Below are positions 1,820 through 34,839 of a stretch of DNA of 64,000 nucleotides, piece after piece (position 1 is the first letter of the stretch; every line of letters begins with the position of its first letter). A program made the translations under genes and the position numbers. Source of the DNA: Gammaproteobacteria bacterium (GTDB taxonomy: Bacteria > Pseudomonadota > Gammaproteobacteria > UWMA-0217); assembly GCA_027081275.1 (NCBI GenBank), contig JALWKV010000046.1:2315-66314 (forward strand), in the 5' to 3' direction. The notes beneath the pieces are model-generated. The model was not told the origin of the DNA. It saw only the letters and a program-made list of their open reading frames with translations, and searched no databases.

Positions 1820-2710
1820 ATGACAGACGTACTCCCCACGATGCCCGGACTTCCCACCGGTGAGACGGTCGTGGACGACACCCCGCCGATGACGGAAACG
1901 CGCGAAGAATTCGACGTAGAGATCAAGGGCACCGTCGGCGCACCCTTCGTCGATGACCCGAAGATGAGCGCGCGCCACAGCAACGTCTTCTACGGCGAGA
2001 AACAGGCGATCTTCGATGTCAGCCTCGACATCGGCAGAAACGAGATCATCGCCATGATCGGCCCTTCCGGTTGCGGCAAATCGACCTTTCTGCGAACGCT
2101 CAACCGAATGAACGACACGATTCCGATATGTCGGGTCGAGGGTGAGCACTGTCTCGATGGCGAAGACATCTACGCGCCCGACCAGGATCCGGTGCTGCTG
2201 CGGGCGCGGGTCGGCATGGTGTTCCAGAAGCCCAACCCCTTTCCCAAGTCGATCTACGACAATGTCGCCTACGGACCGCGCCTGCACGGCCTGGCGCGCA
2301 CGCGCGCCGAACTCGACGAGATCGTGGAGAAAAGTCTCGTGCGCGCCGGGCTGTTCAACGAAGTGAAGGACGATCTGCACAAACCCGGCACCGGCCTCTC
2401 CGGCGGACAGCAGCAGCGGCTCTGCATCGCGCGTGCCATCGCCGTCGATCCGGAGGTGATTCTGATGGACGAGCCGACCTCCGCGCTCGACCCGATCGCC
2501 ACCGCCACCATCGAGGAGCTGATGGACGAGCTGAAAAGCCGCTACACCATCGCCGTGGTCACCCATTCGATGCAGCAGGCCGCACGCGTTTCCCAGCGCA
2601 CCGCCTATTTCCACATGGGCAAGCTGGTCGAGGTCAATCCCACCAACCAGGTCTTTACCACGCCGCAGCACCAGCTGACGGAAAATTACATTACAGGCAG
2701 ATTCGGGTAA
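1820..2710 (+). CDS. pstB: Phosphate ABC transporter ATP-binding protein PstB. The start is uncertain because the ORF is ~40 aa longer at the N-terminus than E. coli PstB
   Basis: Walker [13 protein letters not shown] signature LSGGQQQRL and Walker [12 protein letters not shown]; lies between pstA and phoU. Confidence 0.9.
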
Positions 2711-4130: not shown

Positions 4131-5397
4131 TGTCGAACGCTGGCGCATCGGGCTCGTTCTGTTTCTCGCCGCCACCGGGGGACTGATCACCGACTATTGG
4201 CTCGCAAGCCTGACCGTGGCGCTGGCCGGTTACGCTGGCTGGCTGCTGTTCAAGCAGCAACAGCTCTACGACTGGCTGGCGGCGGGCGCGTCTCCCGACA
4301 ATCCTCCCGATTGCAATGGCATCTGGGAGCGCATCACCTATCAGATTCTGACGATGCAGAAAAAAAGCGAAAAACGCAAGAAGGCCATGAGCCGCCTGCT
4401 GCGCCGCTCCCAAGGCATCGTCAGCGCCCTGCCCTACGCCGCCGTGCTGCTGAACAAGCGCAACGAGATCGAATGGGCCAACAAGGTGGCGGGGCAATGG
4501 CTCAATATCAAGGCCAAACGCGATCAGGGGCAACGGCTGGAAAATCTGCTGCGCGTTCCCGAAGTCTATGTCCTGCTGGAGAATCGCTCACGAGATGAAA
4601 TCGAAATCATCTTTCCACCCGGCGGGTCGCGTCAGCTTGCGATCCAGATCATGCCAATCAAGAAGGGTCCGAAGCTGCTGATCGCCCGCGACATCACCGA
4701 AGCCACGCAGATTCGGCAGCTGCGACGCAGCTTCATCGCCAACGCCTCGCATGAGTTGCGCACGCCGCTCACCGTGGTCAGCGGCTATCTCGAAATGCTT
4801 CACCATGACGAGACGCTGCCAGAAACACTGATACCGGCGGTCGCTGCCGCCGAGCAGCAGGCGCAGCAGATGCAGCGCATCATCGAGGATCTACTGACGC
4901 TGTCGCGACTGGAAAGCTCCAGTATCGACGCAGGCGACCTGGAGGTCATCGACATGACCGAGCTGATCGAGCACCACTGCCTCGACACCGCCCGCCAGCT
5001 CGGCGGCGAGACCCACCAGATCGAGAGTCATGTCGACGCCGGCCTGACGATTCGCGGCATTCCGGCAGAGATCATCAGCGTCTGCACCAACCTCGTCAGC
5101 AACGCCATCCGCCACACCCCACCGGGCACGACGGTACGCATCGAACTGAAACAGCACACGGACAGGATGACCTGCCTCAGCGTCAGCGACAACGGCCCCG
5201 GCATCCCGGCCAGGCACATTCCCCATCTCACGGAGCGTTTCTACCGCGTCGACAAGGGCAGATCCCGTGAAACAGGCGGCACCGGCCTGGGCCTCGCCAT
5301 CGTCCAGCATATCGTCAACCGGCATGACGGCAGGCTGACGATCGAAAGCGAACCCGGCCAGGGCACGACCTTTCGGGCCTGTTTTCCCTGCTGCTGA
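4123..5397 (+). CDS. phoR: Phosphate regulon sensor histidine kinase PhoR
   Basis: N-terminal TM segments, H-box ASHELRTPLT and HATPase motifs (SDNGPGIP, GGTGLGLAIV). Confidence 0.85.
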   Translation: MDSVERWRIGLVLFLAATGGLITDYWLASLTVALAGYAGWLLFKQQQLYDWLAAGASPDNPPDCNGIWERITYQILTMQKKSEKRKKAMSRLLRRSQGIVSALPYAAVLLNKRNEIEWANKVAGQWLNIKAKRDQGQRLENLLRVPEVYVLLENRSRDEIEIIFPPGGSRQLAIQIMPIKKGPKLLIARDITEATQIRQLRRSFIANASHELRTPLTVVSGYLEMLHHDETLPETLIPAVAAAEQQAQQMQRIIEDLLTLSRLESSSIDAGDLEVIDMTELIEHHCLDTARQLGGETHQIESHVDAGLTIRGIPAEIISVCTNLVSNAIRHTPPGTTVRIELKQHTDRMTCLSVSDNGPGIPARHIPHLTERFYRVDKGRSRETGGTGLGLAIVQHIVNRHDGRLTIESEPGQGTTFRACFPCC

Positions 5398-8530: not shown

Positions 8531-8656
8531 GCCGCTCAGCACGGTTGGATTTTGTTTCAGATCAAGGCATTTTCGCGCACAGCGAGGGCGCATACACGCA
8601 GTATGCAACCGAGCGAGCACGAAAATAACGCAGAGATGGAACAAAAGACGACCGTG
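8531..8656 (-). repeat. Repeat family A (MITE-like, ~135 bp), copy 1
   Basis: Reverse-complement match (~95% identity) to 26483..26621 and 33746..33877. Internal ~25-bp imperfect terminal inverted repeats (ttttgttccatatctgcgttattttc / gaaaatgccttgatctgaaacaaaa). Confidence 0.8.
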
Positions 8657-8698
8657 ATGGGCGGTCACTGTCCCTATTTGTTGCCGTTTACAAAAAGG

Positions 8699-8789: not shown

Positions 8790-9350
8790 CCGTCATTCCG
8801 GGCTTAGCGCAACGGAGACCCGGAATCCAGGCCGAGGTACTGGATTCCCGCTTTCGCGGGAATGACGGTGAATCGGTTCGCCGGGCGTGGGAATATGCTG
8901 ACAGGGAGCAGATACCAGCCACTCTGGGCCATCACGCCATTCCGGGCGGAGTGAAACGGAGACCCGGAATCCACGCCGAGGTATTGGATTCCCGCTTTCG
9001 CGGGAATGACGGTGGGTGAATTCTACGGGCGTGGGAATGCGCTAACAGGGAGCAGATACCAGCCACTCTGCGCCATCACGTCATTCCGGGCGGAGTGAAA
9101 CGAAGACCCGGAATCCATGCCGAGGCACTGGATTCCCGCTTTCGCGGGAATGACGGTGGATCGGTTCGCCGTGCGTGTGAATACGATGATAGCGAGCGGA
9201 TACCAGCCCCGCTGCTCCGTCATTCCGGGCGGAGTGAAACAAAGATCCGGAATCCACGCCGAGGTATTGGATTCCCGCTTTCGCGGGAATGACGGAATGG
9301 GGATTCGACTGGCTTGGGAATGCACTGATAGGGGCGGATTCCCTACTCCT
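8790..9350. repeat. Tandem array of four ~140-bp units (147/143/139/132 bp). Each has a ~78-bp conserved core with nested inverted repeats and a more diverged ~60-bp remainder
   Basis: Core gtcattccgggcggagtgaaacggagacccggaatccacgccgaggtattggattcccgctttcgcgggaatgacgg occurs 4 times. It contains attccggg-N16-cccggaat and ATTCCCgctttcgcGGGAAT, the same form as neisserial dRS3 (ATTCCC-N8-GGGAAT). Abuts the sbcD stop codon. Confidence 0.85.
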
Positions 9351-10584
9351 CCCGACGATCCCCCTCTTCCACCTCCCTCACCACCTCCCGATAGGCATCG
9401 ATGAGAACATCCCGCTGTTCGGCCGGGATGTCATGGCTGTCGAGGCAACGGAGAAAAACGTCGTGGACATCGAGGTCGTCCAGCGTTTCATCCTCGCGCA
9501 TTTTTCCCAGCGCTGTTTCGACGACGCGGTTGTTGCGTATGCGCAGGATCTCCAGTTTCGACTCCGACACCAGTTCTTCCAGCCGCTGGCGCAAGTCGCC
9601 GATGATTTCGTCGCCGTCGTAGCGTATCTCCAGCCAGGCGGCGGCCTGTTCCTCGACCAGCGCGCGGATCGCCGTCTCCAGCGTCGGCCAGTCTCCGCTC
9701 AGGTATTGCAGTCGCTGGAACGTCGGCACATCGAGCAGTTCGACTGTCGGTTGCCGTTCGTCGAACGCGACGAGGCAGAGCGATTTTTTCTGCCCCGCTT
9801 CGCCGAACCCCATTGGCAGCGGCGAGCCGGCGTAGCGGATGTGTTCGGCGCCCCCGACTTTCTGCGGCACGTGGAGATGCCCCAACGCCACGTAGTCGAA
9901 GCAGTCCGGAAATACGGCGCCGCTGACGTGGGCCAGCGAGCCGACGTAGAGTTCGCGCACGCCATCGCCCTCGACGGTTTCGCCGCCGGCGGCGAACAGA
10001 TGCCCCATGCCGATGATCGGTATCTCTTGCCCCAGTCGCTCTTGCAACGCCTGGGCGGCCGCGCCGACGGCGGCGTAGTGGTCGCGGATGCCCTCCACCA
10101 GCTTGCGGGCCTTGTCCTCGGTGCTCTCCCCCGCCTCGGCGCTGCGGATGTCGCGATCGCGCAGATAGGGAACGGCGGCGACGATCGCCATCGGCTCCCC
10201 CGCGTCATTTTCCAGCAGCAGCACCTCCTCCGCCGGATCGGCGGCAGCGGCGCCGATCACGTGCACCGACAGCGCGCGCAACAGCGCCCTGGGCGCATCG
10301 AGGAAGGAGGGCGAGTCGTGATTGCCGCCGATGACGACGACGTGGGCGCAACGGGAGCGGGAGACGCGCTCGAGAAAACGGTAGTAGAGCGCCTGCGCCC
10401 GGTTGCTCGGCGCGGTGGTGTCGAAGACGTCGCCCGCCACCAACAGCACGTCGATGCGCTGGCGCTCGATGGTGTCGGCCAACCAGTCGAGAAAGGCAGA
10501 GAATTCCTCGTAGCGCTTGCGGCCATAGAGGCTGCGGCCGAGGTGCCAGTCGGAGGTGTGGAGAATCTTCAGGGGCGCCGCCAT
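9343..10584 (-). CDS. sbcD: Nuclease SbcCD subunit D (Mre11-like metallophosphoesterase)
   Basis: N-terminal calcineurin-like motifs (ILHTSDWHLG, LLVAGDVFD, GNHDS, GHLH), 413 aa. No sbcC ORF on either side. Confidence 0.85.
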   Translation of the reverse strand: MAAPLKILHTSDWHLGRSLYGRKRYEEFSAFLDWLADTIERQRIDVLLVAGDVFDTTAPSNRAQALYYRFLERVSRSRCAHVVVIGGNHDSPSFLDAPRALLRALSVHVIGAAAADPAEEVLLLENDAGEPMAIVAAVPYLRDRDIRSAEAGESTEDKARKLVEGIRDHYAAVGAAAQALQERLGQEIPIIGMGHLFAAGGETVEGDGVRELYVGSLAHVSGAVFPDCFDYVALGHLHVPQKVGGAEHIRYAGSPLPMGFGEAGQKKSLCLVAFDERQPTVELLDVPTFQRLQYLSGDWPTLETAIRALVEEQAAAWLEIRYDGDEIIGDLRQRLEELVSESKLEILRIRNNRVVETALGKMREDETLDDLDVHDVFLRCLDSHDIPAEQRDVLIDAYREVVREVEEGDRREE

Positions 10585-19283: not shown

Positions 19284-19315
19284 ACGCCAGCGAGCCTCTG
19301 ACAGTTCATCCCCGA
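19284..19315 (+). repeat. Isolated copy of hairpin 1 of repeat family B
   Basis: cctctgacagttcatccccgaattgtcagagg matches cctctgaacaattcRtccctgaattgtcagagg of the family B copies; 13 nt downstream of the 18912..19271 stop. Confidence 0.6.
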
Positions 19316-19527
19316 ATTGTCAGAGGCCAGTATAAACGGTAATTTCCCCGCACAATCGACCGCTTGACTCGGTTGGTCATGCAATCAGGGAAGAAACGTG
19401 GAAATCGCCCCGAAGCGGAGGATCCAGTCGGTGAGGCGGTGGGCAGTGGACGTAGCGGGTTGGGAAATTCTTCGTGCCCTTCTGCCTTGGCAGAAGGGCT
19501 TTGTGTGGACAGTCGATCCTTAATCTG

Positions 19528-19692: not shown

Positions 19693-19798
19693 TTTCCAAC
19701 GCTCCTGAGCGGGGCGCGGCGTCTTCTGTACTTCTCTTCCAGGTAATAAACGATTCCGGTCATATCGGCATTCCCCCTTGCCTGCATCCTGTGCTGTG

Positions 19799-19931
19799 AG
19801 TGACTGCTCAGCTCACCCCTGAAATCCGCCATTTCTGCGTTCGAAAATGGTCATTTACATTTGTAAACTCACATTTTCTGCCTTGAACTGTCGGATTTCA
19901 GAGGCAATCCGAGCAGTCACTGGCCAGACTT
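19799..19931. repeat. Repeat family C, full copy with ~30-bp imperfect terminal inverted repeats
   Basis: agtgactgctcagctcacccctgaaatccg ... cggatttcagaggcaatccgagcagtcact. Related fragments at 23483..23559 and 50801..50866. Confidence 0.65.
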
Positions 19932-22559: not shown

Positions 22560-22580
22560 CGCGCTTCAGTTCTTAAGGAA

Positions 22581-22733
22581 AGTCTGATTTGATCAGACTT
22601 TCCTGCGGCACACGGATGTGCCGCCAGAATCGGCCGCGCCAAGCGATTGATTCTGTGAGAAAAACGAAAATCGCACTTTTCATTTTTCGCCCTCTGACAA
22701 TTCAGGGATGAATTGTTCAGAGGCTCCTTAAAT
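22581..22733 (-). repeat. Repeat family B (~155-165 bp, five consecutive hairpins), copy 1
   Basis: Reverse-complement match to 27363..27517 and 34537..34700. Confidence 0.8.
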
Positions 22734-23484: not shown

Positions 23485-23559
23485 TCACTCAGCTCGTTCG
23501 GAAATACATCCGTAACTGCTCAGATTTCAGGGGTGAGCTGAGTAGTTACCGACCTGTTA
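23483..23559. repeat. Repeat family C, short derivative copy
   Basis: aatcactcagctcgttcggaaatacatccgtaactgctcagatttcaggggtgagctgag shares a ~60-nt block with 50801..50866 and the TIR of 19799..19931. Confidence 0.55.
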
Positions 23560-23601
23560 AGATGCGGGGCCGGCAGTCTACCCCAATGTCACAGGCGCTG
23601 A

Positions 23602-26482: not shown

Positions 26483-26621
26483 GGTTGTAACTGCTCAGCA
26501 CGGTCGTCTTTTGTTCCATATCTGCGTTATTTTCGTGCTCGCTCGGTTACATACTGCGTGTATGCGCCCTCGCTGCGCGCGAAAATGCCTTGATCTGAAA
26601 CAAAATCCAACCATGCTGAGC
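26483..26621 (+). repeat. Repeat family A (MITE-like), copy 2
   Basis: ~97% identical to 33746..33877; flanked by gctcagcacgg / ccatgctgagc terminal inverted repeats. Confidence 0.85.
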
Positions 26622-27336: not shown

Positions 27337-27362
27337 CCGCCCCAGGAGGCTGTCCGACTCAA

Positions 27363-27517
27363 GGAACCTCTGAACAATTCGTCCCTGAATTGTCAGAGGA
27401 CGAAAAACGAAAAGTGCGATTTGCGTTTTTCTTACAGAATCAATCGCTTGGCGCGCTCGATTCTGGCGGCACGTCCGTGTGCTGCAGGAAAGTCTGATTT
27501 GATCAGACTTTCCTTAA
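27363..27517 (+). repeat. Repeat family B, copy 2
   Basis: Five hairpins including cagaatcaatcgc...gattctg and aggaaagtctgat-ttg-atcagactttcct. Confidence 0.8.
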
Positions 27518-27767
27518 CACTGTTTGGCTGCAAATCCGTGGATAGCGATCAACTGGACTGATCAGGCTCGTTAAATAGCCCTGCTATTCGCCTCACCCGA
27601 TCAGCCCATTTGATTCGCTCCCACGAATTTTCGCTTCAAACGGTTAAGTCGGACAGCCTCCTGGCGCGGAGCATGGTGACCGGCGGGACGAGCGCGGCTG
27701 CGACAGGTGAATTGATTACGCAAATGTAATAGAGTTGCGCTGCTCTTTGTCCCCAACCGGTCACCCC

Positions 27768-33200: not shown

Positions 33201-33775
33201 AGCTCGACCGCCGACTTGATGTAGGCCTGCTCGCCGGGCCGCCCGACGCGCTGCAATTCGAGATAGAAGCGGTCGGGAAACAGCGCCCGCCACGCGGCCA
33301 GCTCGGCGGTCGCCTCATCGAGATCGCCCCGTCGCAGCGACTCCCAGAGCTGCCCCTCGAAGCCGCCCGACAGCGCCAGCAGGCCATCGCAGTGCCCCTC
33401 CAGCCACGATCGCGGCATCCCCGGCACGCCGCCGACCTGCCCCTCCTGATAGCTGCGCGAGACCAGCTCGATCATGTTGCGGTAGCCCTGCCGGTTCTGC
33501 GCCAGCAGCACCAGACGGCTCGCCTGCGAAGCGTCCTGCTCGTCGCGAATCCAGACATCGACGCCGAAGATCGGCTGGATGCCCTTGGCCAGCGCGGCGC
33601 GATAGAACTTGACGGTGGCGAAGAGGTTGCTCTGGTCGGTTAGCGCCACCGCCGGCATGCCATCGGTGGCGATCGCCTCCATCAGCGGCTTGATGCGGAC
33701 GATGCCGTCGACCAGCGAGAATTCGGTGTGGAGGCGGAGGTGAACGAAACTCAGCACAGTCGTATTTTGTCCCAT
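30281..33775 (-). CDS. dnaE: DNA polymerase III alpha subunit. ATG at 33775 or GTG at 33757; both lie inside repeat A copy 3
   Basis: 1164 aa; N-terminal PHP domain FVHLRLHTEFSL (E. coli FVHLRVHSDYSM), polymerase core, C-terminal OB fold. Confidence 0.95.
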   Translation of the reverse strand: MGQNTTVLSFVHLRLHTEFSLVDGIVRIKPLMEAIATDGMPAVALTDQSNLFATVKFYRAALAKGIQPIFGVDVWIRDEQDASQASRLVLLAQNRQGYRNMIELVSRSYQEGQVGGVPGMPRSWLEGHCDGLLALSGGFEGQLWESLRRGDLDEATAELAAWRALFPDRFYLELQRVGRPGEQAYIKSAVELAAREGVPVVATNDVRFLSPEDFDAHEARVCIHGGHTLSDSRRPRKYTAAQYLRSAEEMAELFADIPEALENSVEIARRCAVTLDLGKPVLPDFPIPAGQTTEEYFCEVSRAGLEERLKVLLPEGCDNREERARAYHERLETELGVINQMGFPGYFLIVADFIQWAKDNDIPVGPGRGSGAGSLVAYALKITDLDPLAYDLLFERFLNPERVSMPDFDVDFCMDNRDEVIAYVARKYGRDKVSQIITYGSMAAKAVVRDVGRVLDHPYGFVDRIAKAVPFEIGMTLTKALEASEDLKKLYDEDEEVRALIDLAMKLEGISRNAGKHAGGVVIAPTKLTDFSALYCEADGSNLVTQFDKDDVEAVGLVKFDFLGLRTLTIIDWAVKAVNEHRGPDEDKLDISRIPLDDPGTFELLKAQQTTAVFQLESRGMKDLIKRLQPDVFEDIVALVALFRPGPLQSGMVEDFIDRKHGRQKVEYPHPDLEPILKPTYGVILYQEQVMQIAQVLAGYTLGGADMLRRAMGKKKPEEMEKQRAIFTTGAVERGVDEHVATYIFDLMEKFAGYGFNKSHSAAYALLSYQTAWLKKHHPAEFMSSVLSADMDNTDKVVTLIDDCNDLGITVIPPDINRSRYKFSSLPDGSIVYGLGALKGVGEGAIENLIEEREANGPYQSLDDLCRRVNTQKTNRRVLEALIRAGALDSITPSRASAMAWLDDALQRAEQHHRDLAAGQSDLFGGPAITVEDAEREALPEWDEMHRLKHEKETLGLYLTGHPINRYLDELKIFTSCRIADLNLDNATQGRRGAEKQVVVAGLVIEIRVRNGRRGKMAFVTLDDRSGRIEVSFFGEEYEKYADLLTKDRILVVDGSLAWDDYSGQFRLRCRELYDIEHARSRYARFLELRVDRSRLAGNGGAVEISRLLMPYRDGRCPVVLNYINGKARAEIRLAQEWAVTPTDECLKRLEQWVGEGNVTVRYN

Positions 33776-33877
33776 ATCTGCGTTATTTTCGTGCTCGCTC
33801 GGTTACATACTGCGTGTATGCGCCCTCGCTGCGCGCGAAAATGCCTTGATCTGAAACAAAATCCAACCATGCTGAGC
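33746..33877 (+). repeat. Repeat family A (MITE-like), copy 3, filling the rnhB-dnaE intergenic space
   Basis: Spans from the dnaE start region to 12 nt before the rnhB stop (33889..33891). Confidence 0.85.
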
Positions 33878-33888
33878 AGTTAATGTGG

Positions 33889-34551
33889 TCAGTCATCGGC
33901 GATCAGCTCGGCGACGGGACGAAAACTGCGGCGGTGATGCGGGGTCACGCCGAGGCGCCGCAACGATTCACGGTGCTGCGCCGTGGGATAGCCCTTGTGC
34001 TGCTCGAAGCCGTAGCCGGGATATTCCTCGGCCAGCGCCACCATCTCGCGGTCGCGTGTGACCTTGGCGAGAATCGACGCGGCGCAGATCTGGGCCACGT
34101 GGCTGTCGCCCTTGACGATGCAGGTCATCTCCAGCGTCAGCTCGGGGCAGCGATTGCCGTCCACCAGCACGCGGTCCGGCGTCACCTCCAGCGCCTCGAC
34201 GGCGCGGCGCATCGACAGCAGCGAGGCGTTGAGGATGTTGAGGCGGTCGATCTCGGCGACCTCGGCGCGACCGACGGCCCAGCTCAGCGCGCACTCGCGG
34301 ATGTGGTCGCAGAGCTGCTCGCGGCGGCTCTCGCTCAGCTTCTTCGAATCGGCCAGCCCTTCGATGGGGGCGCGATGGTCGAGAATGACAGCCGCCGAGA
34401 TCACCGGCCCCGCCAGCGGACCGCGCCCTACCTCGTCGACGCCGGCGTGGAGCACGCCGGCAGCCTGTTCGCGCTGCAATCGACGCAGCAACGCCTGCTG
34501 CTCGTTCAATGTCATCGGGGCCCACCATGAGTTTATGGAACCTCTGAACAA
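33889..34551 (-). CDS. rnhB: Ribonuclease HII
   Basis: [14 protein letters not shown] active-site motif and DSKKLS; 220 aa. Confidence 0.9.
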
Positions 34552-34700
34552 TTCATCCCTGAATTGTCAGAGGACGAAAAACGAAAAGTGCGATTTTCGT
34601 TTTTCTCACAGAATCAATCGCTTGACGCGATTGATTCTGGCGGTACCTCCTTGTACCGCAGGAAGGTCTGGTCTGATCAAATCAGACCAGACCTTCCTTA
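34537..34700 (+). repeat. Repeat family B, copy 3
   Basis: Same five-hairpin layout. Hairpins 4 and 5 carry paired substitutions relative to copy 2 (ggcaca/tgtgcc to ggtac/gtacc; stem extended in agaccagacc). Confidence 0.8.
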
Positions 34701-34839
34701 TGACGTGGAGCCGGATTCGACGATCCGGCAGCTGCCAGTGGGGAATCATTATAGAGGTTCCGACTCAAAGCAGAAGCCGTGACCGGGATGGCCTCGCGCC
34801 GCCATTCAGCGGCCCCGATTTCAGCTACCCCGTCACATT

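Follow-up and report, generated by a model that had tools for sequence, protein, structure and literature searches.

The repeat family B described here is, with high confidence, a MITE, namely a 151-bp, AT-rich, non-coding and non-autonomous DNA transposon, an identity that follows from its terminal inverted repeats (TIRs), its 4-bp target-site duplications and the filled and empty alleles observed between strains. The host is an uncultured hydrothermal-vent gammaproteobacterium of a Thiohalobacter-like lineage, and the genes of the window (the whole stretch of DNA that was analysed, 64 kb) are ordinary chromosomal genes, coding for FabA, RNase HII, FKBP, a UDG-family protein, SprT and a Cys/Met PLP enzyme. 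Direct reading and a profile search showed that the window contains three full copies and one decayed copy of the family. The profile built from the three full copies found them with E values of 1e-53 to 1e-55 and the partial copy with 4e-09, and its search of the 64 kb gave no family B match beyond these. The exact limits of the element were fixed from the flanking duplications. The three full copies listed in an earlier note on this DNA are all present, the ranges given there having included the flanking 4-bp duplications. The copies and their sites in the window are the following:

27363..27513, plus strand: family B copy 1, full, 151 bp, GGAACCTCTG...CAGACTTTCC, within element C
27359..27362, plus strand: left target-site duplication of copy 1, TCAA (the empty site is TTAA)
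27514..27517, plus strand: right target-site duplication of copy 1, TTAA
22577..22727, minus strand: family B copy 2, full, flanked by TTAA (22728-22731) and TTAA (22573-22576)
34537..34697, plus strand: family B copy 3, 161 bp, flanked by TTAT (34533-34536) and TTAT (34698-34701)
19295..19390, plus strand: decayed family B copy, with hairpin 1 at 19295-19326, hairpin 2 lost, hairpin 3 degenerate and the end at about 19390
19364..19367, plus strand: empty target site TTGA, where the contig L023 has a 27-bp mini-element, GGAACCTCTGATTTGATCAGACCTTCC, and a duplicated TTGA

Copy 2 has the UDG-family gene on one side and a 152-aa gene on the other, and is also found in the strain contig L037; copy 3, between the RNase HII and FKBP genes, is also found in the strain contig L016. 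What had been described as an isolated hairpin-1 copy at 19284..19315 is a real copy, but it is not isolated and lies about 11 nt from that position, being a decayed copy of about 100 nt that retains a degenerate hairpin 3. The G+C content of the element is 47%, compared to 64% for the window and the genome. No ORF was called across any copy and, with a length of 151 bp (161 bp in copy 3), the family has the size (below about 500 bp) and the non-coding character of a MITE. A protein search with the sole stop-free reading frame of family B, aimed at further copies in mis-called ORFs, gave no match, and the exact-protein look-up of a neighbouring 222-aa protein returned no record.

Copies beyond the window were searched with a pattern of 19 specified bases from hairpin 1, scanned over one genome per species and over metagenome contigs. 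The genome scan yielded true homologues (L008, L009, L005, L002 and L004) in MAGs named Thiohalobacter sp., Thiotrichales bacterium and Gammaproteobacteria bacterium, together with four other pattern matches due to chance. The pattern matches L001, L003, L006, L007, L015 and L024 were rejected as chance matches that do not belong to family B. The metagenome contig scan gave 27 loci, 22 of them from a single JGI sample, Ga0256832. The loci L016 and L023 are the window's own loci and about 97.5% identical to it, so that this sample holds another strain of the window's species. Ga0256832 contains 18 full copies, each on a separate contig and with unrelated flanks, as dispersed copies of a MITE would be. 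The comparative set was composed of 25 independent copies, 3 from the window and 22 from metagenomes and MAGs, with pairwise identities of 77-99% (mean 89%). All 25 are intergenic and occur in both orientations relative to genes, and many lie 0-50 nt from gene 3' ends. A covariance model of the core formed by hairpins 2 to 4, run over the window and the collected loci, gave no further diverged copies beyond those known.

At five of the loci (L019, L013, L033, L029 and L030), the B insertion is located 0-5 nt from a stop codon, with the TAAA, TTAA or TCAA duplication overlapping or regenerating TAA; stop codons may be a main source of target sites in a genome of 64% G+C. In L013, a near-perfect hairpin of about 180 nt (107-288) is present 100 nt upstream of the B copy; it gave a spurious Rfam match to a microRNA precursor and is probably another foldback or MITE repeat of the same metagenome.

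The alignment of the copies at their ends exhibited a sharp boundary, GGAACCTCTG...CAGAC(T/C)TTCC, with 4-nt direct repeats directly outside. The TIRs are imperfect, GGAACCTCTGA... / ...TCAGACTTTCC. The consensus 5' end GGAACCTCTGAACAATTCAT and the reverse complement of the 3' end, GGAAAGTCTGATCAAATCAG, are identical at 15/20 positions and at 9/11 positions of the tips (P = 4e-6), the core shared by both ends being GGAA-NN-TCTGA. The flanking 4-bp repeat is identical on both sides in 14 of the 25 copies, compared to 2.8 in a control in which the downstream tetramers were shuffled among copies (P<1e-5). Seven different tetramers (TTAA, TAAA, TTAT, TCAA, TCTA, TTTC and TTCA) were found duplicated, varying among copies and matching within a copy, with T-N-A-A as the target consensus; in the two copies with C-initial tetramers, both flanks have the C. 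The remaining 11 copies have imperfect duplications, two of them with reverse-complementary flanks.

Contigs of the same species provide three alleles of the site upstream of fabA. L037, L038 and L042 have a short spacer and no insert, L040 has element C with a single TTAA (...GTCCGAC-TTAA-CACTG), and the window and L039 have element C with B at that TTAA, TCAA[B]TTAA. At the locus of the decayed copy, L023 carries the mini-element with the TTGA duplication and the window the single intact TTGA. These comparisons of filled and empty alleles are direct proof of the mobility of B. Of the options raised in the earlier note, that of a transposition substrate is therefore the one confirmed by the TIRs, the 4-bp duplications and the filled and empty alleles. 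The traits reported for MITEs are a high AT content, an intergenic location, TIRs plus direct repeats and stable stem-loops (PMC10969869). Family B shows every MITE trait that can be tested, the cognate partner IS aside, and is a recently active MITE family with an unusually regular five-hairpin layout, thus a repeat of an already known kind. As a third comparison of filled and empty sites, no B copy was found in the sister-species loci L043 and L044, where FabA is 96% identical, the RNase HII-FKBP interval included, and none was found in 12 kb of another relative (L048 and L049).

Other repeats are located nearby. Element C (window 27337-27674, about 185 bp without B), the host of B copy 1, has a near-perfect terminal inverted repeat of 26 nt (27337-27362 / 27644-27669, CCGCCCCAGGAGGCTGTCCGACT...). 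It is absent from L037, L038 and L042 and present without B in L040, so that it is itself an insertion polymorphism, and it is probably another MITE. Repeat family A is found at 26487-26621, at 33750-33878 and, on the minus strand, at 8534-8668, in copies of about 135 bp that are 94-98% identical, with the ends CTGCTCAGCA... / ...TGCTGAGCAG. The strain contigs L037 and L038 lack the family A copy that lies between the SprT and 222-aa genes, so that this family is also mobile. Just downstream of a family A copy, in window 8791-9361, a 144-nt unit occurs four times in tandem, with 73-88% identity to its first occurrence. An inverted pair of 46 nt (19781-19826 and 23523-23568, 76% complementary) contains CTGCTCAGC, like the family A ends, and may represent solo or decayed family A termini. 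In the sister species (L043, GCA_964614535.1), a lone Cas6-family gene is located at 4538-5233, about 5 kb upstream of fabA, with no counterpart in the region of the window.

The five consecutive hairpins (H1 to H5) described in the earlier note for each full copy were recovered both by single-sequence folding and by RNAalifold on the 25 copies. In copy 1, they are placed as follows:

27367..27399, plus strand: hairpin 1, with its 5' arm within the 5' TIR and one bulged base
27402..27431, plus strand: hairpin 2, GAAAAACGAAAA / TTTTCGTTTTTC, loop GTGCGA
27435..27465, plus strand: hairpin 3, with AATCAATCGCTTG carried by the 5' arm and loop
27466..27485, plus strand: hairpin 4, GCGGCAC / GTGCCGC
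27487..27513, plus strand: hairpin 5, a palindrome made of the 3' TIR and its inward-facing copy

The single-sequence fold of copy 1 has an energy of -66.2 kcal/mol compared to -39.4 ± 3.6 kcal/mol for shuffles (z = -7.4). The RNAalifold structure comprises 56 pairs, with 97.9% of the cells paired. Compensated double changes were found at 12 of the 56 pairs (33 cells), compared to 3.7 pairs and 6.2 cells in shuffles, 0/500 of which reached the observed values; with the partners slid by 1-3 columns, only 1-3 pairs showed double changes. Following the carriers among the 25 copies, at least 14 independent compensated double events were counted. The pair at position 134/153 is A-T in 13 copies, G-C in 7 and T-A in 5, and that at position 110/127 shows a double change in two unrelated copies. 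H2 has the compensated variants GCAAAAC/GTTTTGC and GATAAAC/GTTTATC in other copies, and H4 the variants GGTAC/GTACC and GTGG/CCAC; the paired difference of H4 reported earlier, GGCAC/GTGCC versus GGTAC/GTACC, is indeed in the sequence. So is the lengthening of H5 in copy 3, a symmetric 5+5-nt insertion that places GGTCT in one arm and AGACC in the opposite arm. The bulged base of H1 is kept in 24/25 copies and an A·C mismatch of H3 in 14/25, and the loops of H3 and H5 vary freely. The diversity pi is 0.087 in the stems, 0.24 in the loops and 0.20 in the linkers. The larger alignment that had been proposed as a test for stem-breaking substitutions, here of 25 copies, thus gave a covariation far above the controls, and the claim that the stems are kept by compensated changes rather than left to neutral decay is upheld.

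Five local hairpins are required by no known DDE transposition mechanism, and the MITE identity alone leaves their maintenance unexplained. We consider that the hairpin stems are somewhat more probably than otherwise under selection, in copies that are still propagating or are tolerated, the folded form being either DNA or RNA read through from the neighbours. Selection on structure had been given as the reason for the paired changes. It agrees with the maintenance of the stems, but it is not the sole route to such changes, as the insertion in H5 looks hairpin-templated.

The selected structure could be that of an RNA, as also suggested in the earlier note. Family B would then be primarily a small RNA gene present in many copies, or an mRNA element that acts in cis as a stabiliser, a processing site or an attenuator, and its mobility would be secondary, which we regard as rather unlikely. 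The strong covariation, the better conservation of stems than of loops and the very stable fold agree with such an RNA, as do the loops of H2 and H4, which are kept in a sister family, B2, in which eight stem pairs have changed, and the proximity of many copies to gene 3' ends. The bcr1 and Correia repeats offer precedents, since they are transcribed and act at the RNA level (PMC3184786, PMC2229807). However, no Rfam 15 match was obtained (0 in the window at the gathering score). Rfam searches at E<=10 on the element and at E<=1 on six other loci produced weak and inconsistent matches only, the best of which, COG3610-DE, reached 20 bits compared to a gathering score of 73.5 and did not recur when other copies were searched. 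The element and its immediate surroundings contain no promoter-like or terminator-like site. The orientation relative to the neighbouring genes, for which a check of consistency had been proposed, is mixed: among the copies with both neighbouring genes called, 6 are sense between co-directional genes, 3 antisense, 4 divergent and 1 convergent. Moreover, the reverse strand folds equally well (z = -7.0), and the numbers of G·U and A·C pairs are 22 and 18, or 14 and 17 when H1 is excluded, the copies having been found by the H1 pattern, so that no strand is favoured. A structured sRNA gene as primary identity was set aside on the orientation, the strand symmetry and the lack of promoter and terminator, and nothing specific was found in support of the RNA option. 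A weaker version, compatible with the MITE identity, is that B acts as an RNA element when neighbouring genes read through. With insertion in either orientation and read-through, selection at the RNA level would demand Watson-Crick pairs on both strands, and a role as RNA is thus compatible with the observed symmetry.

The compensated stems could also be a mutational by-product devoid of function, the quasi-palindromes being repaired by intra-strand template switching in which one arm is copied to the other or reverted; the probability of this explanation is, in our opinion, low. Quasi-palindrome template switching is an established bacterial mutation mechanism, and the 5+5-nt insertion in H5 of copy 3 would be hard to obtain via two independent events and easy via templated copying. 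The equal folding of both strands and the lack of asymmetry between G·U and A·C fit a process acting at the DNA level, and the free variation of the H3 and H5 loops also agrees with it. Templated correction alone, however, predicts equal rates in stems and loops, whereas the loops are about 2.7 times as diverse as the stems (0.24 compared to 0.087). The bulge of H1 and the A·C mismatch of H3, kept in most copies, indicate that correction is neither fast nor complete, and the five-hairpin layout is kept in B2 despite its different ends. Copying templated by the hairpin is the simplest explanation of the symmetric insertion of copy 3, so that such transfer of sequence between the arms is probably part of the compensation and probably helps to maintain the stems; it is not the whole story, because the stems evolve slower than the loops and because the bulge and the mismatch persist.

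It is very improbable that family B is a hairpin-recognised single-stranded DNA element of an HUH/Y1 enzyme, either a REP/BIME with RAYT or an IS200/IS605-derived palindrome: Y1 transposases recognise imperfect hairpins and bulged bases, and B has multiple imperfect hairpins with a conserved bulged base in H1, but such elements lack the target-site duplication and the TIRs that B has, its flanking tetramers vary among copies and match within a copy, unlike a fixed cleavage tetranucleotide, its hairpins are AT-rich and of 27-33 nt compared to GC-rich REPs of 20-40 nt with GTAG/CGTC heads, and the neighbourhoods of the copies showed no RAYT or TnpA gene. Like B, REP/BIME sequences are abundant intergenic palindromic repeats, sometimes arranged in mosaics and sometimes with IHF sites; they are unlike B in being 20-40 bp long and GC-rich, with neither TIRs nor target duplication. 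The REP/RAYT and IS200/IS605-type identities were ruled out by the TIRs and by duplications that vary among copies and match within them.

Returning to the MITE, H1 and H5 each consist of a terminal repeat and its inward-facing copy, which gives palindromic ends around a three-hairpin core, H2-H4. At the centre of copy 1, AATCAATCGCTTG is a perfect match to the IHF consensus WATCAANNNNTTR. This motif was looked for after the fact, and such a post hoc match occurs only three times in the 64-kb window, compared to 0.35 expected, each time in a B copy:

27438-27450, plus strand: IHF-consensus match at the centre of copy 1
22640-22652, minus strand: IHF-consensus match at the centre of copy 2
34612-34624, plus strand: IHF-consensus match at the centre of copy 3

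Of the 25 copies, 21 retain the consensus, which occupies positions 76-88 of 151, precisely in the middle of the element; B2 has not kept it. Judging from the motif, a bend induced by IHF at the centre could bring the ends of the 151-bp DNA together, as proposed for Correia. The inverted ends are presumably bound by a transposase whose gene lies elsewhere. A 4-bp staggered cut at T-N-A-A-like sites, followed by insertion, would leave the 4-bp duplication seen at most copies; we infer this binding and cutting from the duplications, the inverted ends and the filled and empty alleles, which are themselves observed. A GATC (Dam-type) site is present at 27499-27502, with equivalents in the other copies, within the 3' terminal repeat TGATCAGAC, and GATC is also found in the 5' terminal repeat of the copies with T as the bulged base (CTGATCAATTC). 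Transposition of other IS elements is known to be under the control of Dam. The mini-element of L023 (1825-1851, 27 bp) contains the B termini only, GGAACCTCTGA-TTTG-ATCAGACCTTCC, fused at the shared TCTGA. Either this is a mobile unit of very small size, or it derives from a full copy by deletion in place between TCTGA repeats; if it transposed as such, it may be among the smallest mobile DDE-type units.

As for the enzyme involved, the most likely partner is an IS5-family DDE transposase, the chances being about even that it mobilises family B, an assignment drawn from two features only, the 4-bp duplication and the identity of 13/20 between its termini and those of E. coli IS5. The IS5 termini, read from MG1655, start with GGAAGGTGCGAA(C/T)AAG, the end compared being GGAAGGTGCGAACAAG, and those of B are GGAACCTCTGAACAAT and GGAAGGTCTGAT. 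IS5 duplicates 4-bp YTAR sites, TTAA among them (PMC5009759). Like IS5, B has a 4-bp target duplication, TTAA included, and termini beginning with GGAA; unlike IS5, it has no transposase gene, and its targets TCAA, TAAA, TTAT, TCTA, TTTC and TTCA depart from YTAR, which gives B a looser preference. A scan for the terminal motif across about 270 kb (the window and the collected loci) returned MITE copies only and no autonomous element with matching ends. Over the same 270 kb, a tblastn search with E. coli IS5 InsH gave spurious matches in dnaE only and no IS5-like transposase, and nothing was obtained for a parent IS by a scan of viral contigs and a blastn search of plasmids.

The sister family B2 was seen at L025 555-735 (minus strand), L025 about 1880-1965 (plus strand) and L017 3318-3370 (plus strand), with one full copy among these loci. 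Its termini and terminal hairpins, GAGG(G/T)TGTCGCAAAAG (GAGGGTGTCGCAAAAG...), are quite unlike those of B, and it is flanked by TTCA repeats. Its H2-H3-H4 core is homologous to that of B, and all the differing stem pairs (8/8) are compensated. The H2 loop GTGCGA and the H4 loop ATCCTT are unchanged between the two families. There is a small chance that the H2-H4 core has a function of its own as a structured module, which could serve a host or transposition factor as a DNA or RNA platform, with the IHF-like site in its middle, and would travel as cargo of at least two MITE families whose ends are unrelated. If so, it would be a conserved structured element spreading on different transposon backbones and not palindromic filler.

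The Correia/NEMIS and bcr1 repeats are the closest to family B in behaviour, and family B belongs to neither, as the sequences, hosts and duplication lengths differ. Correia elements have TIRs of 26 bp, duplicate TA and fold into a single long hairpin, TIR against TIR, that is cut by RNase III. B, on the contrary, has imperfect TIRs of about 11-20 bp, a 4-bp TNAA duplication and five separate local hairpins, with no sequence similarity to Correia. The likeness lies in the length of this Neisseria MITE (about 155 bp, compared to 151 bp for B), the TIRs and target duplication, the almost exclusively intergenic location and the stem-loop potential (PMC2229807). In the 155-bp Correia element, IHF binds in vitro to a centrally placed site that was proposed to aid transposition (PMC2229807); the IHF motif of B, likewise in the central part, is a candidate site. 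The bcr1 repeats (group A bcr repeats of the Bacillus cereus group) resemble B in their length of about 155 bp, their short AT-rich direct repeats, their strain-variable distribution and their compensated stems (PMC3184786), base-pair compensatory changes maintaining their predicted structure (PMC3184786). They differ by a 5-bp direct repeat, by two stem-loops in a cruciform-like fold and by their Firmicutes hosts, compared to the 4-bp repeat, five hairpins, clear TIRs and Thiohalobacter-like Gammaproteobacteria of B, and the sequences are unrelated.

What appeared as a structured RNA candidate is thus a MITE family that was active recently and is documented by its exact ends, its target motif and insertion polymorphisms at the strain level. 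Its insertions explain contig breaks in MAGs of this group and provide strain markers. Family B is the second clear case, after bcr1, of compensatory evolution within a MITE, and it warns that covariation alone is insufficient for calling such repeats ncRNAs. With its five hairpins, its central IHF-like site, its palindromic ends and a sister family with swapped ends, it offers a tidy system to address why mobile DNA keeps internal hairpins.
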